A stretch of 64,000 nucleotides of DNA from contig CAXXVS010000003.1 of the NCBI GenBank assembly GCA_963674755.2, positions 1,600,001 to 1,664,000 of the forward strand. Reading direction: 5' to 3'. This stretch comes from Desulfobacterales bacterium. GTDB taxonomy: Bacteria; Desulfobacterota; Desulfobacteria; Desulfobacterales; UBA5852. Positions within the stretch are counted from its first letter, which is position 1. Every line of letters begins with the position of its first letter. Below the pieces are notes generated by a model. It saw only the letters and a program-made list of their open reading frames with translations, did no database searches and was not told the origin of the DNA. Made by a program: the position numbers and the translations under genes. This document shows, in pieces, positions 22,376 to 36,568 of this stretch.

Positions 22376-22744
22376 CTAACGGGAGCCGCTGATACCGAAG
22401 GAAAAGGAAAAAAAGGGATCCGATACGGAACCGGCCGCCTGATACTGGTCGCCGCGGTCGTCATACGCATCGCTGTCGTAATGGTGGTAGACATGTTGTT
22501 CGACCATTCGATGCGTCGGCCGGGGGCAGTCGCTACGATGCCACGGACCGCGATGCCATCGATCCCCTCGGTGCCTCGGTCCATGGCGCCAAACCGGGGC
22601 TTTTCGGAAATCACGGCCATGGTGCATGTGTCGCTGGTCGACATAGTGACCGGGACGATGATCGCGGCTGGCCCAGGCACTTCCTGAGAAGACGAGTACA
22701 AATCCGATCAGCGCCAGACTGATGAATGCCATTTTTTGTTTCAT
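22376..22744 (-). CDS. Small secreted His/Arg-rich hypothetical protein
   Basis: AAGGAGG RBS; signal peptide MKQKMAFISLALIGFVLVFSGSAWA; C-terminal FSFSFGISG strand. Confidence 0.7.
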   Translation of the reverse strand: MKQKMAFISLALIGFVLVFSGSAWASRDHRPGHYVDQRHMHHGRDFRKAPVWRHGPRHRGDRWHRGPWHRSDCPRPTHRMVEQHVYHHYDSDAYDDRGDQYQAAGSVSDPFFSFSFGISGSR

Positions 22745-22897: not shown

Positions 22898-25546
22898 TTA
22901 ATGGCCTTTTATCAAGGCTTTGAACCCTTCGGTGGGCCTTATGTTTTCCAGGTCCGGGTCGTTTTTGATGGCGCTCCAGTTGTCGTAGCCGTTTTGAATG
23001 GCGCGCTGGAGCCATTCCAGGGCCGCGGCCGGGTCGCCCATTTTGGCATACATGCAGGCGATATTGTAGCAGGTCCCGGGTTCGGACGGCATCATGGCCA
23101 GGATTTCCTTGAAGCGCTCTATGGCGGCCTGGTAGTCCCCCTTGCGGGCATGGGCAAGGGCCTGTTGATGCAAATCGCTGGGGGAAACAGGTCCGGGTGC
23201 TTGTCCGGCCGACTGAAGAATTTCCATCCCCTGGAGGGCGCCCGGATGGGCCGGGTTGAGTCGAAGGGCCTGCTCGAATTGCTGGCGGGCGTCTTCGGCA
23301 TCGCCCATCCGCAGAAGGGCGATGCCCAGATTGACGTGCGCGTCTTCAAACTTCGGATCCAACCGGATCGCCTCCTGATAATTGGCGATGGCGGATTCAA
23401 ATTGTTTCTGCTCGGTAAGAATATTCCCGATGTTGTTATACGCACTGGCATAGGTCGGGTCCAGGGCGAGGGCTTCCCGGTTTTGGGCAAGGGCTTCAGC
23501 CGTATCCCCCCGTGCGGCGAGAAGGAGCCCCAGATTGGTATGGGCCTCGATCAGACCGGGATCCAGGCGGAGCGCCTCACGATAATGCCGTTCGGCCTTG
23601 TCCTTGTCATCGAGGGTCATATACACGTTGGCCATGTTGAAGTGGGCCGCGGCCGTGTCCGGATCGGCGGCGATTGCCCGCCGGTAGTACTCCAGCGCTT
23701 GATGGGGATGGCCCTGATCCTGCAGGAGCTTGCCGATATCCACTAAAAGTTCGGCATTGGCCGGATCCTGCGCCAGGGCCTGCTCGAAATACATGCGGGC
23801 CTGGTCGAATTCTTTCTTGTCCGCATAAATTTTGCCGATGCTGCTGAGGACCAGGGGCTGCTCCGGCGATAGATCGAGCGCTTGGCGGTAGGCTTCCAGG
23901 GCCTGATCGGTTTTCCCTTGGGCGACGTCGATATCGCCGATGCGGGCGTAGACGTCGGCAAAATTGGGATCCAGGTGGCGCGCCTGCTCAAGATAGGCGC
24001 GCGCTTCGTCGTATTTTTCCTGAGCCAGGAGGACGACGGCAAGATTATAGTATGCCTTGACGTAGGCGGGCTGCAGCGCAATCGCCTTGCGGTAGGGTGC
24101 CTCCGCTTCCGCATAGTCCCCCCGGCGTGCATCGATATTGCCGATGTTGTTATATACTTCTCCATATTCAGGGTCTATCTCAAGGGCCATGCGATATTGC
24201 GCCATGGCCTTTTCGTACGCCCCGCTTGCCGCGAAGGCCGCTCCCAGACTGAATCGGGGGCGTGCTTTGTGGGGCGACTTGTCGACGCAATCCTGCCAGA
24301 AGGTGATCCCGTCCTGCCAGACCTTGTTGCGCTGGTAGGTCCAGAAAGAGAACAAAAGGGCCGGCAAGAGAAGTACACCAACGGCGAGTTTCTTTTGCCG
24401 GATATGGGTAAAGGTCCACACCACCGGCATGAGGGGAACGAGCATGGTCGGGAGGTAGGTCCGGTGTTCGAAGATGATGTCCAGGGGGATGACCGACGAT
24501 TCGATGAGGAGGTTTCCCAAATACCAGAAAATCGAAAAGGACAACAGACGGTGTTTGCGGGCGCCCCAGCAGGCGATGACGAGGGCTGTGCCGATCAGTA
24601 TCAAGGCGATCAACGTGGTCGGCGGGCTAACCAACGAGGTTGAAAGCGGATAGTCGTAATCGATATTGAGCCGGTCAGGCCTGGGGAACAGGAACAGGCT
24701 CAGGTAATAAACGATCACCCTGGGCTGGGTCAGGATTCGCTGTCCATAGGTGAAGCGATCCCTGCTGAAGGCATACAAGTTGGTGAGTCTGTCCAGCGGA
24801 TTTTGGCCGAGCAACAAGAGGGCGACCGCCAGCAGGATGGCAAAGACGCCGGCGATGATCCATAGCCGCCGGCGTAACCATTGCGGGTCCGAGGCCTGGA
24901 AGAAATACCACTCATAAAGCAGAATAAAAAGGGGCAGGATGGCGGCATTTTGTTTGCAGCCGAGCGACAGGATCCAGGCCAGAAGAGCGCCGAGGTGCCA
25001 CGGCCAGCTTTGGCGCAAGCGGCCCCCCGAGCGCCGGCCTTGAATGTAGAGGCAGAAGGCCAGCAGGTAGAAAAAAGCCGCCATGCTGTTGGCCCGCTGG
25101 ACGATATAGGTCACGGATTGCGTGTGAAGCGGGTTGGTAAACCAGAGCATGGCGGTTAAAAATGCAATGGCGGCGCGTTGGGTGGAATCGCCTTTCAGGC
25201 CGGACAATTGGAGCGTCCAAAGCAGAAAAACAAACAACAGGATGCCGTTGGCAATGTGAATGGCGATGTTGACGACATGATAGCCGGTGGTATCGTCGCC
25301 ATCGAACAGGTAATTTATCGCGAAGGTGATGTTCGCCAGCGGCCGGCTCTTCGATCCCGGGGGCCGGAACGCGGCGTTTCGGAGGCCATCGAGTGACAGA
25401 TGATCGAGACGGAGTTGAGGGTTTTCAAGGATTCGGGGCCTGCTGTCAAACAGAAACGGCGACTCAAGGGTGTTGGAATAGAGGATGGCGCCGGCGGCCG
25501 AAAAGGCCAAGGCGGCCAAGATGGTGATGATGAGCACACGCTTCAT
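22898..25546 (-). CDS. TMTC-like GT-C membrane glycosyltransferase with long C-terminal TPR array
   Basis: Multi-TM N-half with YSNTLESPFLFDS..I.EN, SRPL, GYHVVNIAIH, PLHTQSVTYIVQR, KQNA, FEHRTYLP, RNKVWQD; followed by many TPR repeats. Start taken at MKRVLII. Confidence 0.8.
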   Translation of the reverse strand: MKRVLIITILAALAFSAAGAILYSNTLESPFLFDSRPRILENPQLRLDHLSLDGLRNAAFRPPGSKSRPLANITFAINYLFDGDDTTGYHVVNIAIHIANGILLFVFLLWTLQLSGLKGDSTQRAAIAFLTAMLWFTNPLHTQSVTYIVQRANSMAAFFYLLAFCLYIQGRRSGGRLRQSWPWHLGALLAWILSLGCKQNAAILPLFILLYEWYFFQASDPQWLRRRLWIIAGVFAILLAVALLLLGQNPLDRLTNLYAFSRDRFTYGQRILTQPRVIVYYLSLFLFPRPDRLNIDYDYPLSTSLVSPPTTLIALILIGTALVIACWGARKHRLLSFSIFWYLGNLLIESSVIPLDIIFEHRTYLPTMLVPLMPVVWTFTHIRQKKLAVGVLLLPALLFSFWTYQRNKVWQDGITFWQDCVDKSPHKARPRFSLGAAFAASGAYEKAMAQYRMALEIDPEYGEVYNNIGNIDARRGDYAEAEAPYRKAIALQPAYVKAYYNLAVVLLAQEKYDEARAYLEQARHLDPNFADVYARIGDIDVAQGKTDQALEAYRQALDLSPEQPLVLSSIGKIYADKKEFDQARMYFEQALAQDPANAELLVDIGKLLQDQGHPHQALEYYRRAIAADPDTAAAHFNMANVYMTLDDKDKAERHYREALRLDPGLIEAHTNLGLLLAARGDTAEALAQNREALALDPTYASAYNNIGNILTEQKQFESAIANYQEAIRLDPKFEDAHVNLGIALLRMGDAEDARQQFEQALRLNPAHPGALQGMEILQSAGQAPGPVSPSDLHQQALAHARKGDYQAAIERFKEILAMMPSEPGTCYNIACMYAKMGDPAAALEWLQRAIQNGYDNWSAIKNDPDLENIRPTEGFKALIKGH

Positions 25547-25592
25547 AAACGTTCGATTCCTCTTCACAGGCGTCCCGACGGTGGGGTCCCCC

Positions 25593-26543
25593 TCAGCCGC
25601 GGTCCAAAAAGGCGACGATACCGCCGATCGCCGCGACAATGAGCATCTGGGTGAGAAACAAGAGGCCTAACAGCACCCCCTTTTCAGCCGGCAGTGCAGC
25701 CAGGCTGAAGAGAAACGCGTAGGCCGACTCCCGCAGCCCGATGCCGTTCAATGTAACCGGTATCATCTGAAGGAGCAAAACGATCGACGCCATCCAGCCG
25801 AGTTGCAGAAAACCGAGCGGGGTGCCGATGGCCGTGGCGAGCAGATAGACCCGCAAGAGATAGACAAAATGCCAGAGCAGGGCGATCGCCAGACACGCTC
25901 CCAAAACCGATAGGCGGTTGAGATAGAAGTCAACAAAGTGGTCCGGCCGGGCAATCCGTCCCGCAAAGGGCAAGGCGTCCAATTTGGGGATGCGGCCGAT
26001 CAGCGCGTTGAAGGCCGTGTTTACCAGCGGCGCAAAGAGATAGATCAGGATCACGCCCGTGGCGGCCAGGCCGCCAAGGGCAAGCGGCATCATCAGGGGG
26101 CGGAGGCGCTCCGTCCCGGGCGAGGCGAGTGTCAGTTGGAGCAGCAAAACGACGAGGCAAAGAACGAAAAGGAAGCTGGCCCGTTCCAGAACCATAACGG
26201 TGATGAATCGGCCGCGGTCGTTTTGGGCTTTGGTTGTCGCCACCCAGCGCACAAGCCCCTGCCCGACGGCGGGGGTCAAGAAAAACGCATAGAACCGGCA
26301 GAGCAGATTGATGCGGAACAAGGCCGCCAGGCTCCGCTGGATTCCGGAAGGCACCAACAGCAGCCGGAACTTGCCGGCCAGCACAAGACTGTTGAGTAAA
26401 AGTAAAATGAAGGACGCCCCGTAATAGTATATATTGGTTGCGGCCAGCACCGACAGCATGGCCCGCAGGTCCACCTTGTGAAGGACCGCGGCGATAAAAA
26501 CGGCCGATATGGCAACTTTAATAATCGTTTTGTAGCGCGCCAA
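25593..26543 (-). CDS. Lysylphosphatidylglycerol-synthase-TM / UPF0104 flippase-like membrane protein
   Basis: Highly hydrophobic; FLTPAVGQGLVR, VMVLER, IPVTLNGIGLRE motifs. Confidence 0.8.
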   Translation of the reverse strand: MARYKTIIKVAISAVFIAAVLHKVDLRAMLSVLAATNIYYYGASFILLLLNSLVLAGKFRLLLVPSGIQRSLAALFRINLLCRFYAFFLTPAVGQGLVRWVATTKAQNDRGRFITVMVLERASFLFVLCLVVLLLQLTLASPGTERLRPLMMPLALGGLAATGVILIYLFAPLVNTAFNALIGRIPKLDALPFAGRIARPDHFVDFYLNRLSVLGACLAIALLWHFVYLLRVYLLATAIGTPLGFLQLGWMASIVLLLQMIPVTLNGIGLRESAYAFLFSLAALPAEKGVLLGLLFLTQMLIVAAIGGIVAFLDRG

Positions 26544-26576
26544 GATTCCGTCACCTAGTACGTTATCATGTTGCGG

Positions 26577-27542
26577 TCACCCAGGGTAGGCAATGTCGTA
26601 GCCCAATCGCCCCAGCATCGGGTCCAACACGCTTCGTACCATATTAAGTTGATCGGGGGTGAATTCCCGCTGCCACTTGTTGAAATTGTTCTTGTTCATT
26701 TCAGGGAGGCCATCAAGAAACGAACCGGAGGCGTCAAGCCCTGTGAAGGCAATGATCTCGGAAACAATGCGGCGCCCGTCACGGAGCATGTCTTCGTAGC
26801 GAACGTCTAACCGTCGGGAGGGGGGAATACTGTCCCAGGCATCGCGGACCGCTTCAACGCATTTCAGCCACTGGAGCGCATTGAAGCGCAGCAGGCGGTT
26901 GTCGTCATACTGCCTCTCCCAGCCCCGGAAACGCGGCCCCCAGCCTACCGCGCCCTGCCAGCGCTTGCGGTTGAGATGTTTTCTCTTGTCGACGAGATGG
27001 CCGTGGGTCTCGAACCACAGGGATCTGAGCCGATCCTGCCATAGCGGTTGACGTCCCAGCCAGTCTTGTAAGACACCGAAGGCCCGGCCATAATTGAAGC
27101 GGCGATGGCGTGCCGGGTCGTTTACGATTTGCCGCCGTCGCTGCCATTCCCTATGGATGGAAAGGGTCGCATCGCGCCCATCCCGGATGAGATGGATAAA
27201 CCGTGCGTGTGGGAAAATGGCCTTTATGAAGGGGATCTTCAGGCTGTTGCGGGGTGATTTGTCAACGATCAGGGACGCACCGGAGCGGTCGCGGTAGCGC
27301 CTAAAGTCCCGGCGGATCTGGGCGACGACCGCCGGTCGGGCATCTTCTGCGGAGCGCTCGTCGTGCGGCCAATGCCTGAAATGGTGGTCCCAAATAAAGT
27401 ACGGTTCGTACCACTGGCAAATGCATTGGTGGCGGCCCAGCATTTCGCCCAGAATTGTCGTACCGGAGCGCGGCGAGCCGACGATGAAGACGACGGCCTT
27501 GTCAATCGGGGGGGGGCAGGCTTTGGTCATTACGGTGTTCAT
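26577..27542 (-). CDS. Sulfotransferase (PAPS-dependent)
   Basis: FIVGSPRSGTT (5'-PSB), DKSPRN, FIHLIRDGRDATLS (3'-PB), VRYEDM. Confidence 0.9.
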   Translation of the reverse strand: MNTVMTKACPPPIDKAVVFIVGSPRSGTTILGEMLGRHQCICQWYEPYFIWDHHFRHWPHDERSAEDARPAVVAQIRRDFRRYRDRSGASLIVDKSPRNSLKIPFIKAIFPHARFIHLIRDGRDATLSIHREWQRRRQIVNDPARHRRFNYGRAFGVLQDWLGRQPLWQDRLRSLWFETHGHLVDKRKHLNRKRWQGAVGWGPRFRGWERQYDDNRLLRFNALQWLKCVEAVRDAWDSIPPSRRLDVRYEDMLRDGRRIVSEIIAFTGLDASGSFLDGLPEMNKNNFNKWQREFTPDQLNMVRSVLDPMLGRLGYDIAYPG

Positions 27543-27558
27543 AACGGAGATTGGTATG

Positions 27559-28602
27559 TTATCGCCACCAGGCCTTCATGATGGCCCGGGTGAAATTGAG
27601 CGCGTATTTGAGATCCCGGCCCTTTTTACTTTTGCCGTACTTGCGGCGCATAATGGTAACGGGCTTTTCTCCGATCCGTATGCCGGTCCTTACCGCTTCA
27701 ATGATCAGTTCGCTGGTATGGTACTGGTCCTCGTGCAGATCGATGGATGGCATGATGCGCAGGTCGAAGGCCCGGTAGCCGCTCGAAGGATCCGTAATCT
27801 TTTTTCCCAGCAGCAGGCTGATGAGCCCGCCGAAGAGATAGACGCCCGTGATGCGGAGCAGGCTGTCCCTTTCCCGTTGCCCCAACACCCTCGATCCGAT
27901 GACAAACTCATAGTCCCCTGCCAGGATCGGGCGAACCAGAGCGGCCATATCCTCCGGCCGATGCTGGCAGTCCGCATCCATGGTGACGCATATGCGGGCG
28001 TTCGAATTTTTGAGGATGTCGTAGCCGAGGCGCAGGGAGGCCCCGCCGCCGCGGTTGATGGGATTGGAGACGGCCAGGCAGCCGTGTTCTTCCGCCACGC
28101 TACGGGTGGCGTCTTCGCTGCCGTCGTCCACCACCAGAATCCCGACGTCCATATCGTCAATGGCAGCCGGCATGGAGGCCAGCAAGTGCGTCAGGTTGTC
28201 GGCTTCATTATAGGCCGGGATAACGACCATGATCGGCTTGATGCGATCGCCGAGCTGGGCGGCCTTTTCGAGGGCGACCACCCCCATGCTGCGGACCAGG
28301 CGATCGAACTGGATCCGCAGGTTTTCAATGCGTGATTTGGAATAGAAGGTGAAAAACAGCAGGAAGATGTTGGATAGAATGAGCAGGGCCAGAAGCCGGC
28401 CGCGCTGCTGATCTTCGAGGGCCAGCATGTCCCGCAGAAAATTGATCGAGGCCGGATTGATGGTGATCGTGATGAGGAACAGGTTGAAAAGCGAGAAGAA
28501 AAGAAAATTGGCCCGCTTCCAGCGGGCGCCCCGGTAGACGAGGAAGGTGGTGATCAGGCCGACGATTCCCACGAGCAATCCGATGAGACGCAAGTTCGAC
28601 AT
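27559..28602 (-). CDS. DUF2304-like membrane domain fused to GT2 (DPM1-like polyprenyl-phosphate glycosyltransferase)
   Basis: Three N-terminal TM helices, then VVIPAYNE, VVDDGSEDAT, NRGGGASL, TMDADCQH, VIGSR, TDPSSGYRA. Confidence 0.85.
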   Translation of the reverse strand: MSNLRLIGLLVGIVGLITTFLVYRGARWKRANFLFFSLFNLFLITITINPASINFLRDMLALEDQQRGRLLALLILSNIFLLFFTFYSKSRIENLRIQFDRLVRSMGVVALEKAAQLGDRIKPIMVVIPAYNEADNLTHLLASMPAAIDDMDVGILVVDDGSEDATRSVAEEHGCLAVSNPINRGGGASLRLGYDILKNSNARICVTMDADCQHRPEDMAALVRPILAGDYEFVIGSRVLGQRERDSLLRITGVYLFGGLISLLLGKKITDPSSGYRAFDLRIMPSIDLHEDQYHTSELIIEAVRTGIRIGEKPVTIMRRKYGKSKKGRDLKYALNFTRAIMKAWWR

Positions 28603-28603
28603 G

Positions 28604-29752
28604 CTAGGCCCACTGTACCTTTCTGAAAATTTGCTCCCGGTTGATCTGGTCCCTGTGGGCCAGGGCAAATTCGATCATCGCGGCAAGCACCTCGTCGGTG
28701 AGATAGCTGGGTTCCAGGCCGAGGTCCAAAAGTCCGGTGTGGCGCGGGTTGTAGTAGTGCGCTTCAGCCTCTTTGCGGGGATTGTCCCGCTGTTCCACCT
28801 GGACCTGGAGGTCCATCCGGTTGCCGACTTTTTGCACCCGGGATGCCAGCTCGTTGACGCTGAAGGTTTCGGTGAACTGGTTCAGGATGCGCAGCTCGCC
28901 CCTGGCGGCCGGTGTTTCGATCGCCAGGCGAATGCAGTTCAGGGTGTCCTGGATGTTCAAATACCCCCGGGTCTGGCCGCCCTGGCCATAGACGGTCAGG
29001 GGGTAGCCGATGGCGGCCTGGACCACGAACCGGTTGAGCACGGTTCCGAAAATCTCGTCATAGTTGAAGAAGGGCAGCAGGCGCCTGTCCGGCCCCGTTT
29101 CCTCGGTGAAGATGCCGTAGACCGGCCCCTGCATGAGATCCGTGACCCGCATATCCCACATCCGTACGTAAAACCAGAGCAGGTCCGTGTCCATGATTTT
29201 GGTGGTGTGATAAAGGCTGCCGGCCTGGCGCGGGAAGAGGAATGTGTGGTCGCGGCCCTTGTGATGGACGTCGATCCAGCCTTCCTCGATGTCGATATTC
29301 GGCGTCCCGTATTCGCCCATCGTGCCGAGTTTCACAATGTGGGCTTCCGGACAGAATTCCCGCACCGCGAAGATCAGGTTGGCCGTGACGTTGAGATTGT
29401 TGTTGAGGGTCAGCATGGCGGCCGGGCGATCGAGCATGGAATAGGGGGCCGCCGGCTGCTCGGCATAATGCACCACGGCATCGGGTGTGAACGCGGTAAA
29501 CAGCGTTTCAACGAACGACCAATCGGTCAGGTCGCCGATAAACGGCCGGATCGTATGCCCTGAACACTGTTTCCAGAGCGCGACGCGTTCGTCGAGGTCG
29601 GGCACGGCATAGAGCGGCACGACATTTTGCTCCCGGCAGAGGGACCGGCGCAGGTAGTTGTCGGCCACCGCTATCGCATGGCCGCGTGCGGAGAGGTGCA
29701 TGGCCGTGGGCCATCCCAGATAGCCGTCGCCGCCCAATATCAAGACCCGCAT
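28604..29752 (-). CDS. sqdB: UDP-sulfoquinovose synthase (SqdB/Agl3/SQD1 family)
   Basis: GGDGYLGWPTAMHLS, HYAEQPAAPYSM, KLGTMGEYGTPNIDIEEG, GSLYHTTK, TDLMQGPVYG, YDEIFGTVLNRF, QTRGYL, NQFTE, NPRKEAEAHYY. Confidence 0.9.
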   Translation of the reverse strand: MRVLILGGDGYLGWPTAMHLSARGHAIAVADNYLRRSLCREQNVVPLYAVPDLDERVALWKQCSGHTIRPFIGDLTDWSFVETLFTAFTPDAVVHYAEQPAAPYSMLDRPAAMLTLNNNLNVTANLIFAVREFCPEAHIVKLGTMGEYGTPNIDIEEGWIDVHHKGRDHTFLFPRQAGSLYHTTKIMDTDLLWFYVRMWDMRVTDLMQGPVYGIFTEETGPDRRLLPFFNYDEIFGTVLNRFVVQAAIGYPLTVYGQGGQTRGYLNIQDTLNCIRLAIETPAARGELRILNQFTETFSVNELASRVQKVGNRMDLQVQVEQRDNPRKEAEAHYYNPRHTGLLDLGLEPSYLTDEVLAAMIEFALAHRDQINREQIFRKVQWA

Positions 29753-30807
29753 CTGGCATCTCCCGGTGTGTTCAGCCCACAGGCCATCAATCCGGCCTGC
29801 TTTAAAAATCTTGCCAGCTCCGCCTCCGACATCAGGGGCTGGCTTTCGGACTGGTACGGTTGCAAGACCGCCTCCGAAACGACATCCGGATAAGTGTAGC
29901 TGATGTTGCGGTAGAGGTTCTTAAAGGCGGGCAAGACCACGAAATAGTCGGCCAGTTCGAGGGTGCGTCGGGTTTCTTCCCGGTTCAGGAGCTCCTCATA
30001 CATTTTTTCACCGGGCTTGGCACCGATCACTTGCACCTCGATCTGTTCGGGGCGCCGCCCGAATTGCGGTGCCAGTTCCCTTATCATGACCCGCGCCAGG
30101 GTTTCGATTTTGACGGCCCTCATTTTGGTAATGAACACTTCGCCCCCGCAGGCGTATCCGGCGGAATCCACCACCAACCGCACGGCGTCACCGATGCTCA
30201 TGATGAAGCGGGTCATGGCCGGGTCGGTCAGCGTCAGCGGTCCGCCCTGCCTGATTTGTTCACGGAAGATGGTGACGACGGATCCGCGGGACCCCAGAAC
30301 GTTACCGAAACGGGTGGAGGAGAAAATGGGGCCGTCCCCCCGCAGATTGCTGTTGGCCGCCGTCATGAGACGCTCGCCCATAAGTTTGGAGGTCCCCATG
30401 ACATTGGTGGGATTGACGGCCTTGTCGGAGCTGGTGAAGATGACCCGCGTCACCTTCTGGTCGATGGCCGCGGCGATGACGTTCTGGACGCCCATGATGT
30501 TAGTCTGTACCGCTTCGAACGGGGAGCGCTCGCAAAGGGTGACATGTTTGAAGGCCGCCGTATGAAAAACGACATCGATGCCCTTCATTTTGCTGATAAG
30601 TTTGCGGCGGTCACGCACATCGGCCAGGAAAAAAGACGCCTCGGAGCGGTCGTTGAAACACTGCTCGAGGGCGAAGAGTTCGCTTTCATTGTTGTCCAAG
30701 GCCACGAGTTCCGCGACGCGGCCGCCGGCCAACAGCTGATGGACCAGCTCCCGGCCGATGGTACCGCAGGCACCGGTGACCAGCACGCGCTTATGGGTTA
30801 AAGGCAA
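29740..30807 (-). CDS. Polysaccharide biosynthesis protein, UDP-sugar 4,6-dehydratase (CapD/PseB-like SDR)
   Basis: TTG start after GGGAGG; TGACGTIG, HTAAFKHV, SSDKAVNPTNVMGTSK, RFGNVLGSRGSV, MTRF, KPGEKMYEEL. Confidence 0.9.
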   Translation of the reverse strand: MPLTHKRVLVTGACGTIGRELVHQLLAGGRVAELVALDNNESELFALEQCFNDRSEASFFLADVRDRRKLISKMKGIDVVFHTAAFKHVTLCERSPFEAVQTNIMGVQNVIAAAIDQKVTRVIFTSSDKAVNPTNVMGTSKLMGERLMTAANSNLRGDGPIFSSTRFGNVLGSRGSVVTIFREQIRQGGPLTLTDPAMTRFIMSIGDAVRLVVDSAGYACGGEVFITKMRAVKIETLARVMIRELAPQFGRRPEQIEVQVIGAKPGEKMYEELLNREETRRTLELADYFVVLPAFKNLYRNISYTYPDVVSEAVLQPYQSESQPLMSEAELARFLKQAGLMACGLNTPGDARCGS

Positions 30808-31153: not shown

Positions 31154-31990
31154 TCAAAAACGGTAGGTCCCGCCGGCTTCCCCGCGCACAAATTTGTCCC
31201 CCAGGGTCGTACCCAAGGCCTCAAAGGCGGCCTCACCGGTACAGTGGCAGGCAATCACCTTATCGATCGGAAACGCGGCCAAGGCGTCCACTGTTTTCGT
31301 TAGTCGCTGGGGGCCGGCATTGACCAGATGCAGGCCGCCGATGAGGGCCCGGATGCGGGCCATGCCGCTCACGCGGCGGATGTGGTCGATGGTGTTGATG
31401 ATGCCGGCGTGGCAGCAGCCCACGCAGATAACGAGGCCGTCTTCGGTCGCAATCCACAGGGCCATATCATCTTCGATGGGATCAGGGTGCCGGACGCCCG
31501 GGTCCAGGAAAAAGGGGCCGCCGCTATCCTCATAGGGGGTCTGGCGGGGGATGGGACCGGTCAGCCCCATGGCCTTCGTGATAAAGGTAGCTTCCGAAGC
31601 CCAATGCAGTTGTTTTTCGGGCACGCGGTCGAGGGCGCTCCGGGCTTGGCCGGGCATGTGGATCCCCTTGGGGCCTTCCTTGCGTTTACTGTAGCGGGGT
31701 TGCACCACCGCGGGATGGCAATACACATGGACGTTGGGGGCTTCCTGGAGCACGTGGGCCAGCCCGCCGGTGTGGTCGTAGTGCCCATGGCTTAACACCA
31801 ATTGGGAGATGGTGCGCAAATCCACGCCCAGGGCGCCGGCGTTGGCGGGCAGGGCCGGCCCCTGGCCGGTGTCGAACAGTGTATGCCGGCCTTCGGCTAC
31901 GATCCAGAGGGCCAGCCCGTGTTCGGCGGTGAGCCCCGGGGCGGCCTGGTTGTCGACCAGGATGGTGATGTCGATAGGGGGTGATGTCAT
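31154..31990 (-). CDS. MBL-fold metallo-hydrolase (MJ0301/TM1679-like)
   Basis: AEHGLALWI, LFDTGQ, LSHGHYDHTGG, GCCHAGI, GGLHL, CHCTG. Confidence 0.9.
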   Translation of the reverse strand: MTSPPIDITILVDNQAAPGLTAEHGLALWIVAEGRHTLFDTGQGPALPANAGALGVDLRTISQLVLSHGHYDHTGGLAHVLQEAPNVHVYCHPAVVQPRYSKRKEGPKGIHMPGQARSALDRVPEKQLHWASEATFITKAMGLTGPIPRQTPYEDSGGPFFLDPGVRHPDPIEDDMALWIATEDGLVICVGCCHAGIINTIDHIRRVSGMARIRALIGGLHLVNAGPQRLTKTVDALAAFPIDKVIACHCTGEAAFEALGTTLGDKFVRGEAGGTYRF

Positions 31991-32002
31991 CGGCCTGCTT
32001 CT

Positions 32003-32944
32003 TCAGGGAAGGACATAAAAAGTCCGCTCGTCTTTGGCAACCCGCTCCAAACGGTGGGACGCGGCCAGGGTTTCGAGGTGCTTGAGGGCTTCGTTGATAT
32101 GCATGCCCAGGCCATCGGCCACATCACCGGCGGTGCAGGGACGGCGGCCGAGCATGGCGATGATGTCGTCTTCGTGGACGGTGTTGCCAGGCGCGATCGA
32201 TGGCGCGTGTGAGACGGGCCGGGCGATGATATCCACCGGACACTGAAACAGGGACGCCAGCGCGTGGAGTCGATGGACCGGGACGGCCGCTGCGACGGAT
32301 TCCGCCGGGGGGCGGCAGACCGTGTTCAACTGCACCCGGGCGGGCTGGATCTGGTTGACCCAGGCGGCAATTTGTTCGACTTCGGCCTCCGTGTCGCTCA
32401 GCCCGGCCAGCAGCAGGACTTCCAGCCAGACCTCCCCGCTGAAGCGATGGGTGAACTCGGCCAAGCCTGTGACCATCCGCTCGAAGGACAGGTCCGGGTG
32501 AGGCCGATTGACCTTTTGGAACAGCCGCTCATGGCCGGCGTCCAGGGACGGCAGAACGCGGTCGGCCGTCATGAGGGCCTCCTGGACCTCCTGTTGCCAC
32601 AGCAGGGCGCCGTTGGTCAGCACGGCCACCGGGATTGCGGTGCCGGCTTTTATGCCGCGGAGCACTTCGCCGATGGCGCTGTTCAGAGTCGGCTCCCCCG
32701 ATCCCGCCAGGCTGATCATATCGGGGGGGTGTTTAGTTTGCAGGGCCTGGCGGCATTCGGCCACCAGAGATGCGGCCGGTACATAAGGCCTTCTTTCAAG
32801 CGTCAGATTCGTGGTGCGCCCCAGCTGGCAGTAAATGCAATCGTAGGGGCAGGTTTTAAAGGGTACCAGATCGATTCCCAGGGAGCGTCCCAGCCGCCGG
32901 GAAGGCACCGGGCCGTAAACATGTTTGGGAGCATGGGCGGTCAT
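32003..32944 (-). CDS. Radical SAM protein with C-terminal HTH-like region
   Basis: YGPVPSRRLGRSLGIDL, CPYDCIYC (CxxxCxxC), GSGEPTL, VLTNG. Confidence 0.9.
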   Translation of the reverse strand: MTAHAPKHVYGPVPSRRLGRSLGIDLVPFKTCPYDCIYCQLGRTTNLTLERRPYVPAASLVAECRQALQTKHPPDMISLAGSGEPTLNSAIGEVLRGIKAGTAIPVAVLTNGALLWQQEVQEALMTADRVLPSLDAGHERLFQKVNRPHPDLSFERMVTGLAEFTHRFSGEVWLEVLLLAGLSDTEAEVEQIAAWVNQIQPARVQLNTVCRPPAESVAAAVPVHRLHALASLFQCPVDIIARPVSHAPSIAPGNTVHEDDIIAMLGRRPCTAGDVADGLGMHINEALKHLETLAASHRLERVAKDERTFYVLP

Positions 32945-33840
32945 AATGCGCTATCTTCTCCTGGTGTTGCGGATGCGCGTTCCCCGAGGGAGAGGGGGCG
33001 CATCAGGATATGGGTGCCTTCGGGCTGGCCGACATGATCGGCAATCACCGCGCATTTGATCTTGAACAGAAAAAAGACGCGCTGATCCGTGTCGTTCAAT
33101 GATTCGAGATTGCCCTGACCCTTGGCAATGACGAGGTCGGCCCGGCGATACTGTGCCCGAAAGGCCGGGCTGCAATCATCCAACAGGGTTCCGGGGGCAT
33201 CCGACCCGTTGTCGATCAGCGCGGCCATTTCATCCAGTCGGGCCGCCCGCGCATCTTCCAGGGTGGCGTCGTTGAGAACGGGTGCCCCGCGAACGGCGAC
33301 CGTTAGGCGGTGGCCGGCCAGCTGCACGAGGAGCAGGCGGTCAAAGACGATTTCACCGGCATTGTCCGCCAGGTACAGGATGGAGCGGGCTTCGTCCAGG
33401 GCCTGCCGGAAGTCGTCGATATCGCCGCTGAAGGGTTCGGCGAGGACATTTCGAAGGGCTTCCCGCACTTCATCCCCGGTGATATCGGCCCGGGCCCCCA
33501 GGTCGATCACATTGCCGGCAATGGCCAGGCGGGTGGCCATGGCCAATGGGTCCCTGGCCTCGCTCACGGCCGCTTCCAGTTGCGGCAGCAGGCGCCAGGC
33601 CAGTTGGTTGTGAAAAGTCTTCAGCGGGCCATAGGGGTCGGCGGCGGCGGTGGCTTCCCGCAAGCGGCGATGAATCTGTTGGGCCAGGGCCGGCGGGGAG
33701 TCCTGCAAATTGATGACGCTGGCCCATTGCAGGATCTCACGGGTGACTCTGAGATGAAAGTCGGGCTCCGGGGACGATCGCCGGGCGGCATCGATGGCCT
33801 GACGGATGAGGCAGGGAATGCAGTCCAGCGCAGTTTTCAT
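32941..33840 (-). CDS. DUF89/ARMT1-like metal-dependent phosphatase
   Basis: DCIPC, AIAGNVID, LADNAGEIVFD, PVLNDAT, AKGQGNLESL, KIKC. Confidence 0.9.
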   Translation of the reverse strand: MKTALDCIPCLIRQAIDAARRSSPEPDFHLRVTREILQWASVINLQDSPPALAQQIHRRLREATAAADPYGPLKTFHNQLAWRLLPQLEAAVSEARDPLAMATRLAIAGNVIDLGARADITGDEVREALRNVLAEPFSGDIDDFRQALDEARSILYLADNAGEIVFDRLLLVQLAGHRLTVAVRGAPVLNDATLEDARAARLDEMAALIDNGSDAPGTLLDDCSPAFRAQYRRADLVIAKGQGNLESLNDTDQRVFFLFKIKCAVIADHVGQPEGTHILMRPLSLGERASATPGEDSAL

Positions 33841-33975
33841 GAAGTCTTCCGCCTTTGCTTTTGGTTGGGCAGCGCATGAACCGGTTTGGGCGCGGCCCCG
33901 GACGGCGTCCTGGAATCCAATGGCATCGGGGCCGTTTCGCAGAGGAAGCGGCCCCGATCGTCTACTCGGCTGCTA

Positions 33976-34350
33976 TCATTGATCCGGTGATGAGGGGGTT
34001 TCAATATCTTCAAGGCGTTTTTGGATCCAATCCAGCTCCGCTTGAAGGGTTTTAGCCTGGGTGGCCAGGGCTTGCTTTTCGATTTCAGGATTCGGAGGCG
34101 TATACGCTTCAGGATAACCATACGGCACCTGGTATTCGCCCAAGCGCATTCCTCCCCCGCGTCTGAATGAACGCCCCTGGCGCCCGCCGCCCGCACCAAA
34201 GCCGCGTCCCCCGCCATAGCCCATGCCGCATCCCCATCCGGTGCGCGGATAGGCTTGCCCCCGGCGGGTAGATCCGCCGGCGCAGAATCCGGCCCCGCGG
34301 CCGGTCATGGGGCCCATTCCCATCGGTCCGGTACCATTTCTTCCTGGCAT
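33976..34350 (-). CDS. DUF5320-family Gly-rich small protein
   Basis: MPGRNGTGPMGMGPMTGRGAGFC signature; C-terminal coiled coil; AGGAGG RBS. Confidence 0.85.
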   Translation of the reverse strand: MPGRNGTGPMGMGPMTGRGAGFCAGGSTRRGQAYPRTGWGCGMGYGGGRGFGAGGGRQGRSFRRGGGMRLGEYQVPYGYPEAYTPPNPEIEKQALATQAKTLQAELDWIQKRLEDIETPSSPDQ

Positions 34351-34382
34351 TGTGATATCCTCCTGATGTGCGTTGTTTATGT

Positions 34383-34997
34383 TTATTCTCTTGTCATCGG
34401 GCCCCCGCATTGGGGGCATTTCTGCGTGGTGCAGGGCACGCCCCGTTCATGGGGTTGGCGCTGCCCACACTGGGAGCAGATGCAGAATTCGGCCTGCTGT
34501 GCGCCGGGCGTGCCGCCGACCGGCTGGGAACGTCGACCGCCCCCCTGGCCGCGGCCACCCCGTCCGCGTCCGCCACCGGCCCCGCGGCCCTGATTGGTTC
34601 CATTCATGAGATCATCCTCCTTGTGTACGATATTGTTGCCATGAAACGGACGGCCGCCTCTACGGCGGCATCCGGGCATCCTAAAGGTCTCGCGCTCCAG
34701 CCCGCCCCGGCACCAGGCCTGGATCACCGCAGCCGCCGGGCCGACCACATAGGGAACGACCTGGATGCCATAGCCGGCCACCATGGCCAGCACCGGCCGT
34801 GATATGGCCCCGCAGATCAGGGTGTCGGCCTCCAATTCCACCAACCGCAGGACCTTTTGAATCGGGAGTTCACCTGGCAGAACTTCCATTTTTTCGTCGA
34901 TCCATTGTCCCGCGACCTCGTCCACCAGGAGAATCTCCCGGGCAACATCGAAAACCGGTGCAATACGCTGATTCCATATGCTGACGGCGATTTTCAT
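34383..34997 (-). CDS. NifB/NifX (Orp-like) domain protein fused in frame to a Gly-rich linker and zinc-ribbon
   Basis: MKIAVSIWNQRIAPVFD, LICGAIS, MPGC; C-terminal CICSQCG...HERGVPC...CPQCG. Confidence 0.85.
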   Translation of the reverse strand: MKIAVSIWNQRIAPVFDVAREILLVDEVAGQWIDEKMEVLPGELPIQKVLRLVELEADTLICGAISRPVLAMVAGYGIQVVPYVVGPAAAVIQAWCRGGLERETFRMPGCRRRGGRPFHGNNIVHKEDDLMNGTNQGRGAGGGRGRGGRGQGGGRRSQPVGGTPGAQQAEFCICSQCGQRQPHERGVPCTTQKCPQCGGPMTRE

Positions 34998-35033
34998 CAC
35001 AAATCTTTCCCTGTGGTGTTCGCCATAAAGTAC

Positions 35034-35049
35034 AGCATAACATGTGCCA
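35034..35049 (-). promoter_or_regulatory. Sigma54 (-24/-12) promoter
   Basis: Minus strand TGGCACATGTTATGCT = GG-N10-GC, about 35 bp upstream of the NifX-like start and adjacent to a sigma54 activator gene. Confidence 0.85.
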
Positions 35050-35137
35050 GGAATTTCACCGGATTATTAAATGATATAACCTACTGTTATAATATTTAAA
35101 TTTATGGATTAAACCGGGGGGTGTGGCGGGAACTATA

Positions 35138-35186
35138 GATGCAGATATGCAACTGTTATGTCCAAATATAGTTGCAATAATGCTAC
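35138..35186. promoter_or_regulatory. Paired palindromic enhancer (UAS) sites for the sigma54 activator
   Basis: GATGCAGATATGCAAC (35138-35153) and GTTGCAATAATGCTAC (35171-35186), consensus GTTGCA-N4-TGCAAC, 33 bp apart. An AT-rich IHF-like spacer lies between them and the promoter. Confidence 0.6.
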
Positions 35187-36568
35187 TCTTTATCGGGGCG
35201 TGAACGGCCGTCTTGTTCTGGCAGCGCTATCCCCAGTTTTTTTATCCGACGGAAGAGGGTGGTTTTATGGATCCCCAGGGCACGTGCGGCGGCTGTGCGA
35301 TTATTGTGGTGCTCGGCCAGCGCGTTACGGATGGTTTGGGCATCGAGCATCGCGTGGGCTTCCTTGACGGTGGATCCGACCGCTTTTTGAAAGGGCGCAC
35401 CGGTGCGCAGCTCCTCGGGGAGGTGGGCCACGTCGATGCGGTCATCGGGGCACATGATAAAGGCCCGTTCGATGGCGTTTTCGAGCTCCCGTACGTTCCC
35501 GGGCCAGCGCTGCGCCATCAGCAGCGAGAGCGCTTCGGCAGTGATGCCCTGCATGGATTTGTCTTGCAGGCGGTTGAGCCTGTCGACGAACTGGTCCACC
35601 AGCAGGGCGATATCTTCCAGGCGCCGGCGCAGGGGCGGCAGTTCGATGCGCACCACATTGATGCGGTAGTAGAGGTCTTCTCGGAAAGCGCCCTTGCGCA
35701 TTTGTTGGGCCAGGTCCCTGTGGGTGGCCACGATGATGCGGGCCGGGGTGGTTTCGGGACGGGTGCTGCCCAGGGGCTCGTAGACCCGTTCCTGGAGAAC
35801 GCGCAGCAGGCGGACTTGCAGAGCCGGGCTGATTTCGCCGATTTCGTCCAGAAAAAGGGTGCCGCGCCCGGCCAGGGCAAATCGTCCGGGTTTGTCTTTG
35901 ACCGCTCCGGTAAAGGCCCCGGCCTTGTAGCCGAAAAGCTCCGATTCCAGGAGGGTTTCGGGCAGGGCCCCGCAGTTGACGGCCACAAAGGGTGCTTCAC
36001 GCCGGGGGCTGAGATCGTGGATGGTGCGGGCCACGAGATCCTTGCCCGTGCCGGTCTCGCCCAGGATCAAGACCGTGCTGGGGCTGGCCGCGATGGCGGG
36101 CAGGGCTTCGAAGACCCGTTGCATCAGGGGGCTGCGGCTGACCAGGTCGCCGACCCGGCTGCGCCCTTCCAGTTCCCGGCGCAGGGCTTCGATTTCGCTC
36201 AGATCGCGGAAGGTTTCGGCCCCCCCGATCACGCGGTCGTCGGCATCCCGCAAGACCGCCGTGGAAATGCTGACCGGGATGCGCCGCCCCTCGGCATCGA
36301 TGATGTAGCCTGTGCGGCCGATGACGGGTTTGCCGGTCGCCAGGGTCTGTCGCAGGGCGCAGTCGGGCCCGCACATGCTGGAGCGGAAGACCTCCGAGCA
36401 GAGACGTCCGATGGCTTCGGCCCGCGCGACACCGGTGATGGTTTCAGCCGCCCGGTTGAAGGAAGAAATGCGCCAGTCAGGGTCGACGGTAAACACCCCG
36501 TCCGAAATGCTTTCCAGAATGGCGTCGGTGGGCGTCGGAGCACGCTTGTCTTTGTTTGGGTCGCTCAT
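35183..36568 (-). CDS. PAS-domain sigma54-dependent activator (OrpR-like)
   Basis: PAS with CSEVFRSSMCGPDC (Cx8Cx3C); GETGTGKD, ESELFG, GAFTGA, LFLDEIGE, WPGNVRELEN; Fis HTH. Confidence 0.92.
   Translation of the reverse strand: MSDPNKDKRAPTPTDAILESISDGVFTVDPDWRISSFNRAAETITGVARAEAIGRLCSEVFRSSMCGPDCALRQTLATGKPVIGRTGYIIDAEGRRIPVSISTAVLRDADDRVIGGAETFRDLSEIEALRRELEGRSRVGDLVSRSPLMQRVFEALPAIAASPSTVLILGETGTGKDLVARTIHDLSPRREAPFVAVNCGALPETLLESELFGYKAGAFTGAVKDKPGRFALAGRGTLFLDEIGEISPALQVRLLRVLQERVYEPLGSTRPETTPARIIVATHRDLAQQMRKGAFREDLYYRINVVRIELPPLRRRLEDIALLVDQFVDRLNRLQDKSMQGITAEALSLLMAQRWPGNVRELENAIERAFIMCPDDRIDVAHLPEELRTGAPFQKAVGSTVKEAHAMLDAQTIRNALAEHHNNRTAAARALGIHKTTLFRRIKKLGIALPEQDGRSRPDKE

Follow-up and report, generated by a model that had tools for sequence, protein, structure and literature searches.

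A six-gene operon at positions 22898-30807 of a 64,000-nucleotide stretch of DNA from a Desulfobacterales bacterium (GCA_963674755.2, contig CAXXVS010000003.1, positions 1,600,001 to 1,664,000; the whole stretch is termed the window) may encode a lipid-linked glycosylation system by which proteins outside the inner membrane would receive a C-sulfonated amino sugar (probably 6-sulfo-N-acetylquinovosamine). We give this reading just short of an even chance. Taken separately, lipid-linked transfer was considered very likely, a C-sulfonated donor probable and a protein acceptor equally probable; the three estimates are partly interdependent. The operon is conserved but patchy in its distribution, and in it a lipid-phosphate carrier connects a sulfosugar cassette with a transferase of TfpW/TMTC-like type. 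Its six open reading frames (ORFs) are all on the minus strand and tightly packed, with junctions of -13, 1, 16, 33 and 46 nt:

29740..30807, minus strand: dehydratase, a Polysacc_synt_2 short-chain dehydrogenase/reductase (SDR), 355 aa (Polysacc_synt_2, 7.5e-95)
28604..29752, minus strand: SqdB/SQD1-like SDR, 382 aa (SQD1, 445 bits; NF041015, 426 bits)
27559..28602, minus strand: fusion of DUF2304 with a family 2 glycosyltransferase (DUF2304-GT2), 347 aa (DUF2304, 6.3e-08; Glycos_transf_2, 1.1e-22)
26577..27542, minus strand: sulfotransferase, 321 aa (Sulfotransfer_3, 2.2e-28)
25593..26543, minus strand: UPF0104/LPG_synthase_TM membrane protein, 316 aa (PF03706, 6.2e-26)
22898..25546, minus strand: predicted C-fold glycosyltransferase (GT-C) membrane domain (about residues 1-420) followed by tetratricopeptide repeats (TPR), 882 aa (11 TPR_1 stretches)

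Likely starts were placed at 30807 (TTG, with GGAGG upstream), 28602 and 25546. Domain calls were made by Pfam and NCBIfam profile searches of the operon proteins and, with the match to SQD1, bore out the gene list and identities given in an earlier note on this DNA, the GT-C label resting on a predicted fold, a feature match and motifs. The absence of sqdX, sqdC, sqdD, wzx and wzy from the six genes was likewise confirmed. The source genome is 97% complete, and a single SqdB-like gene and a single TMTC-like gene were found in it. The organism is a sulfate reducer, with aprA above cut-off and an adenosine phosphosulfate kinase also encoded.

The six-gene arrangement is more than chance, since its order recurs in other genomes. 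The exact order was found in G414, in G527 (where the GT-C gene is in pieces) and in the metagenome locus L151; G006 held five of the six genes on a contig ending in sqdB, and L149 carried the first five, followed by inserted genes, a second flippase gene and the GT-C gene. Across 301 genomes of the order, a DUF2304-GT2 ortholog was present in 22 and SqdB in 49. SqdB occurred in 18/22 GT2-positive compared with 31/279 GT2-negative genomes (Fisher odds ratio 36, p 1e-12, a value overstated because kin genomes are not independent), and in seven of the nine families having DUF2304-GT2. The four GT2-positive genomes without SqdB were 91-95% complete drafts in 200-760 contigs, and in one of them a truncated sqdB stands at the end of a contig. 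A TMTC-like gene was present in the GT2 locus of 13/21 other genomes, two of these genes being broken (G527, G557), and dehydratase, SqdB, GT2 and GT-C stood together in 6/21 other GT2 loci. As the earlier note had proposed, the genes cover donor synthesis and lipid loading and include a predicted flippase and a GT-C transferase, and they travel together across genomes; a failure to co-occur in relatives had been named as counting against the pathway, and the genes do co-occur. These identities, the linkage and the co-occurrence, like the predicted fold described below, are matters of observation.

Many loci add genes for a soluble GT2, methyltransferases, other sulfotransferases or a PMT_2 protein, so the glycan would vary between loci; the minimal gene set of the window suggests a single sugar. 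In seven loci (L241, L242, L245, L285, L286, L287 and L290), the operon adjoins argS, a SPOR-domain gene, gatA or mutL. The context in the window differs from these surroundings, which are found in many relatives, and this suggests that the operon was relocated in the source genome.

The reactions, the sugar and the acceptor we infer as follows. A Pen-like dehydratase would convert uridine diphosphate N-acetylglucosamine (UDP-GlcNAc) to the 5,6-ene, and the SqdB-like enzyme would oxidize C4, add sulfite to C6 and reduce C4 again, the sulfite coming from the cell's sulfate respiration. The sugar would be loaded onto undecaprenyl phosphate by DUF2304-GT2, perhaps O-sulfated by the sulfotransferase from 3'-phosphoadenosine 5'-phosphosulfate (PAPS), and the glycolipid flipped by the UPF0104 protein. 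The GT-C protein would then move the sugar to Ser/Thr of proteins gripped by its TPR arm.

For the lipid-loading step, DUF2304-GT2 is predicted to make polyprenyl-phosphate sugars in the manner of GacI/GacJ and PpgS/Rv3632. Its best NCBIfam match was PpgS (99 bits against a cut-off of 370, hence no ortholog call), and the PDB matches were Dol-P-Man (dolichol-phosphate mannose) synthase, ArnC and GtrB. An excerpt of bioRxiv 10.1101/180810 presents GacI and PpgS as the two characterised DUF2304-aided GT2s, which with DUF2304 helper proteins produce N-acetylhexosamine (HexNAc)-phosphate-polyprenol, and mentions that Geobacter and Desulfuromonas have DUF2304-GacI fusions. In Mycobacterium, PpgS/Rv3632 combines a GT2 resembling Dol-P-Man synthase with a DUF2304 partner, a pairing that the fusion in the window also shows. 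The GacI/GacJ/GacK/GacL system of Streptococcus pyogenes also brings a DUF2304-aided GT2, a flippase candidate and a GT-C protein together in one locus; there, however, the acceptor is a cell-wall polysaccharide and the flippase candidate is Wzx, with neither a TPR arm on the GT-C protein nor a sulfosugar reported in the excerpt. The UPF0104/LPG_synthase_TM protein is a predicted flippase, a role that is itself given as a prediction in excerpts of PMC5898192 and PMC12713373.

For the transfer step, the membrane domain of the last protein was assigned as TMTC-like GT-C from its predicted fold, a feature match and motifs. No Pfam match above cut-off was obtained for this domain, and DUF1736 (PF08409) matched neither the window protein in the genome search nor any of 29 family members. 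Its feature match in the Atlas was 0.98 to a PMT_2 cluster and 0.92 to a DUF1736 cluster. The structure model of residues 1-433 contained 11 helices of at least 17 residues, with TPRs from about residue 430, and the predicted fold was GT-C, the multi-helix membrane fold common to PMT, STT3 and ArnT. Asp34 in the first outer loop was invariant in 29 aligned domains, and the likewise invariant Arg68-Pro69, Lys198 and Glu360-His-Arg-x-Tyr were also kept in the window protein. The first Asp of the first loop is described as found in all such enzymes, and the DD positions as critical, in an excerpt of PMC7801869.

The likeness to TMTC proteins drawn in the earlier note held in part. Like animal TMTC1-4, the window protein has an N-terminal GT-C domain and a C-terminal TPR region, with M2 RP (SKSRP) and M7 E/R/Y (EHRTY) present, and the first Asp of M1, the Arg of M3 and the Lys of M4 are common to both. 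The likeness failed for DUF1736 and for M1, M3, M4 and M5 as whole motifs: placed by eye, these read DS, RAN, KQN and DY in the window compared with DD, RxD, KE(T/Q)xxT and DW, so that the second Asp, the M3 Asp, the M4 Glu and DW are altered. The animal enzymes are O-mannosyltransferases, whereas the window donor, judged by context, would not be mannose. Full-length prokaryotic TMTC homologs have already been noted (PMC7801869, excerpt). The bacterial TMTC-like family is large, with 1141 matches among 8000 scored candidates, and homologs of the window GT-C were present in 41/61 genomes searched, the source genome included. In G478 and G375, DUF2304-GT2 is surrounded by four or five TMTC-like genes in tandem (L291:227-16554, L294:11582-19899).

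A bacterial protein of this layout is TfpW of Pseudomonas aeruginosa group IV, which has 11 predicted transmembrane helices and TPR and O-glycosylates Pseudomonas pilin (bioRxiv 10.1101/2020.04.19.049825, excerpt). Likened by description, the two have in common a GT-C domain of about 11 helices, a periplasmic C-terminal TPR region and an acidic first-loop motif; TfpW uses a lipid-phosphate monosaccharide donor for protein O-glycosylation, and the same layout is predicted for the window. TfpW, however, transfers D-arabinofuranose and directly follows pilA. The window GT-C gene lies on a different contig from pilA; its product has DS in place of DD and the longer TPR arm (882 compared with 646 aa), and is predicted to draw on a sulfosugar donor. 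The earlier note knew of no such pathway in bacteria; as regards a sulfonated protein glycan, none was found in the literature listings searched, but a characterised bacterial GT-C/TPR protein glycosyltransferase does exist in TfpW.

Possible protein acceptors were surveyed at 29 GT-C homolog loci with 1.5-kb flanks. A pilin-type gene was present in 14/29, and in 12/29 it was directly upstream on the same strand. In seven of the nine same-genus genomes with a pilA match, a homolog came directly after pilA; of the remaining two, one had a methyltransferase-GT2 and a distant homolog after pilA, and the other ended at a contig edge. These same-genus pilA loci continued from TMTC-like genes into flippase, GT2 and PMT_2 genes, and the homologs following pilA showed about 36% identity to the window GT-C. 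In the source genome, where the order is pilR-pilA (L182:12915-16613), the gene immediately after pilA (C2:1217288-1217653) encodes VKOR-DsbA. A VKOR-DsbA gene follows GT-C in relatives, and one or two TMTC-like genes separate it from pilA in the same genus. Because the source pilA adjoins this gene, the window GT-C could, by analogy, act in trans on pilin. The source genome also encodes at least nine PEP-CTERM-type proteins by pattern, including C1:330002-333212 and C2:300536-303643, which are candidate glycoprotein acceptors.

To identify the sugar, the first two gene products were compared with characterised enzymes. The SqdB-like protein scored 445 bits to SQD1 (1qrr alignment) and at most 44 to other SDRs; on NF041015 (UDP-sulfoquinovose synthase), both it (426 bits) and an Arg101-type control (457 bits) were under the cut-off of 575. 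In the alignment to 1qrr, H95, T144, M145, E147, Y148, Y181 and K185 are kept (YxxxK present), and all residues tested in Agl3 are retained save Arg101. The window protein thus has high similarity to SQD1/SqdB/Agl3 with the catalytic Thr/Tyr/Lys in place, and differs in having Pro for Arg101 and a dedicated dehydratase partner. In the SQD1/Agl3 reaction, a 5,6-ene is formed and sulfite is then added (PMC8987622, excerpt). The Agl3 sugar goes to a protein glycan via an N-linked oligosaccharide (PMC4388408, excerpt); in contrast to archaeal and PglB N-glycosylation, the 97% complete source genome gave no match to STT3 (PF02516), for which a control search was positive in four archaea.

The dehydratase is a soluble member of the UDP-GlcNAc dehydratase family, with motifs SSDK and MGTSK. 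Its closest solved structure in a PDB search was 6bwc (260 bits), followed by 4j2o (210), CapE (207) and 2gn4 (188). According to an excerpt of PMC8987622, 6BWC is Pen, a UDP-GlcNAc 5,6-dehydratase of Bacillus thuringiensis that serves pseudaminic acid synthesis and releases UDP-GlcNAc-5,6-ene. Pen and the window enzyme have the Asp-Lys acid/base pair (SDK) in common, whereas the latter has Met for the catalytic Tyr and an SqdB-like partner where Pen has Pal. All identified close solved relatives use UDP-GlcNAc, and, rather than sulfoquinovose, an N-acetylated derivative is the probable sugar.

Neighbouring genes were counted in the best 80 of at least 591 confirmed SqdB loci in GTDB, from many phyla. 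A dehydratase gene was present in 75/80 SqdB loci and within 1 kb in 73/80. A PAPS reductase gene was present in 11/80, in L049 at a distance of 49 nt from SqdB; it was immediately downstream in L190, L195 and L196. PAPS reductase yields sulfite, and O-sulfation does not need it. Because the Pen-like relative, the UDP-GlcNAc-using relatives, the HexNAc-loading GacI/PpgS and the PAPS reductase neighbours point the same way together, the donor would by analogy be UDP-6-sulfo-N-acetylquinovosamine. The earlier proposal of a sulfoquinovose donor is weakened, the sugar being probably N-acetylated and Arg101 being replaced in the SqdB-like enzyme. A sulfoquinovosamine has been reported from a haloarchaeal N-glycan; a literature search on that word found nothing.

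Observations that weigh against the proposed pathway were made for its acceptor, its sugar and its gene linkage, and are given here with the alternatives on which they bear. Concerning the acceptor, a pilin gene lay within 1.5 kb in 0/9 closest homolog loci, and in each of G006, G044 and G057 a copy in the operon coexists with another linked to pilA. A quick tree built from 50 domains, all rows being kept and one of them long, placed the window GT-C within a clade of 15 rows, separate from one of 21 rows that are mostly pilA-linked (Shimodaira-Hasegawa-like approximate likelihood ratio 99 each). It is conceivable, although unlikely, that the same lipid-linked sulfosugar goes to a glycan or lipid (lipopolysaccharide, exopolysaccharide or a lipid-linked oligosaccharide), as with GacL and ArnT, rather than to protein. 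The long TPR arm instead fits the layout of protein-modifying TMTC and TfpW, the homologs of about 36% identity follow pilA, and the lipid A-type transferases of the source genome are separate ArnT-like genes.

Concerning the sugar, Pro100 in the window's SqdB-like protein stands where Agl3 and SQD1 have Arg101, and the TDLNQG motif reads TDLMQG. The Agl3 R101A mutant is inactive, and Arg101 is described as essential (PMC4388408, excerpt). Since Arg101 is replaced, sulfite addition by the SqdB-like enzyme is put forward as a prediction. The dehydratase dyad is Mx3K, the type of the 4,6-dehydratases PglF and WbpM, unlike the Yx3K of Pen (PMC8987622, excerpt), and Mx3K was found in 84/86 SqdB-paired dehydratases, two being unread. 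The enzyme might no longer add sulfite, the pair making a 6-deoxy-HexNAc and the sulfur of the glycan being an O-sulfate from the sulfotransferase. These substitutions and the dyad fit such a scheme, as does Pen's partner Pal, which turns the 5,6-ene into a deoxy sugar (title of a reference in PMC8987622); we consider it quite unlikely, in view of the other Agl3-tested residues, all kept, the SQD1 score and the PAPS reductase genes beside SqdB. The sulfotransferase itself is accessory. Its ortholog occurred in 11/301 genomes compared with 22/301 for DUF2304-GT2, it was missing from some complete operon versions (e.g. G402), and its PDB matches were weak (best 1.1e-07). This weakens the sulfation named in the earlier note as part of the system.

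Pro at the Arg101 position was common, being read in 91/97 SqdB ORFs examined, and 0/4 Arg-type ORFs had a dehydratase neighbour. In 29 further SqdB loci, a dehydratase accompanied 10 Pro-type copies (58-64% identity) and was absent beside 12 Pro-type, three Arg-type and four unread copies. Pro is thus also found in SqdB branches without a dehydratase, a further point against the proposed pathway, and because of these 12 loci the pairing characterises an SqdB branch and not the Pro residue. Another such branch, with Pro at this position and no dehydratase neighbour, is that of L200-L208; L200 scored 562 bits on NF041015, above an Arg-type control.

Concerning gene linkage, the SqdB-dehydratase pair is a mobile cassette that is not specific to the operon's pathway: in the best 80 loci a TMTC-like gene adjoined it in one and the fused DUF2304-GT2 in five. 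No TMTC-like gene was found in 8/21 GT2 loci. Three of these end at a contig edge, but the one in G392 (one contig) has dehydratase-SqdB-GT2-sulfotransferase-GT2 and no such gene within 20 kb. Where a genome has both SqdB and GT2, the two were unlinked in about half of the cases. In the GT-C protein, the DD motif, which is DD in 109/120 homologs, reads DS; Q replaces the metal-binding E of M4 (Q in 97/120 homologs) and N replaces the M3 D. The operon could accordingly be a mosaic, its cassette mainly serving polysaccharide loci elsewhere and its DS-type GT-C being weak, inactive or specific for another sugar. GT2-sulfotransferase-flippase-GT-C without adjacent SqdB in G057, G395 and G447, other glycan loci with sulfotransferases in the source genome, and the two broken GT-C genes agree with this. 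It was nevertheless judged improbable: the genome-level co-occurrence of GT2 and SqdB persists even when they are unlinked, and DS is conserved in intact orthologs (P0002-P0004, G006, G395 and L151), the other key residues of the window GT-C, from Asp34 to the Glu360 motif, being kept. For a sulfonated or sulfated glycan on surface proteins, as the earlier note had envisaged, the lipid-linked pathway genes speak in favour, and the sugar identity, the sulfotransferase, the cassette specificity and the DS motif against. Outside the order, L045 and L060 have the cassette near DUF2304-GT2 or a split version of it, together with an LPG_synthase_TM gene and one for a large membrane protein, which in L060 has a weak PMT_2 match; this arrangement is possibly a parallel system.

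That SqdB makes UDP-sulfoquinovose for the sulfolipid sulfoquinovosyl diacylglycerol beside unrelated neighbours is highly improbable: the protein is very similar to SQD1 and one of 23 family 4 glycosyltransferase (GT4) genes in the source genome, among which an SqdX-like enzyme may be present, reaches 158 bits on a glycolipid synthase model whose cut-off is 480, but this 97% complete genome gave no GT8 (SqdD-type) match, the SqdB branch is tied to the dehydratase and to glycan loci, and no sulfoquinovosyltransferase name was returned for any GT4 scanned, in a comparison made without an SqdX reference. The 158-bit match came from an 840-aa protein with a C-terminal GT4 (G000:C3:1563556-1566099; L306:8581-11100).

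A more specific form of the proposed pathway, which we regard as doubtful, is that sulfate reducers O-glycosylate envelope proteins with 6-sulfo-N-acetylquinovosamine via a split sulfoquinovose-synthase reaction, undecaprenyl phosphate and a TMTC-like enzyme. The Pen-like enzyme would free the 5,6-ene and the Arg101-less SqdB would add respiratory sulfite, while the TMTC-like active site would have lost acidic residues to accept an anionic donor.

A literature search, judged from listings and covering few subscription journals, found neither the operon nor a sulfonated bacterial protein glycan. C-sulfonated protein glycans were found described only in archaea, with sulfoquinovose in Sulfolobus and sulfofucose in Thermoplasma (PMC11407970, excerpt). 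If the proposed pathway is correct, such glycans reach bacteria, sulfate respiration is tied to surface chemistry, and a bacterial TMTC-like enzyme gains a defined donor. Two questions, the product of the widespread cassette and the cargo of the large, uncharacterised bacterial TMTC-like family, become testable with four purified proteins. With its single donor pathway, single lipid loader and single transferase, this compact operon offers an unusually clean case for such tests.

Upstream of the operon, window positions 31154-36568 (minus strand) carry genes for a sigma-54-type regulator and for FeMo-cofactor-binding-like, DUF5320, ARMT1-like phosphatase, radical S-adenosylmethionine/helix-turn-helix and metallo-beta-lactamase-fold proteins; no connection of this cluster to the operon was seen. 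Downstream, at 22376-22744 (minus strand), an ORF of 122 aa without a Pfam or NCBIfam match has a signal-peptide-like start and a His/Arg-rich middle.

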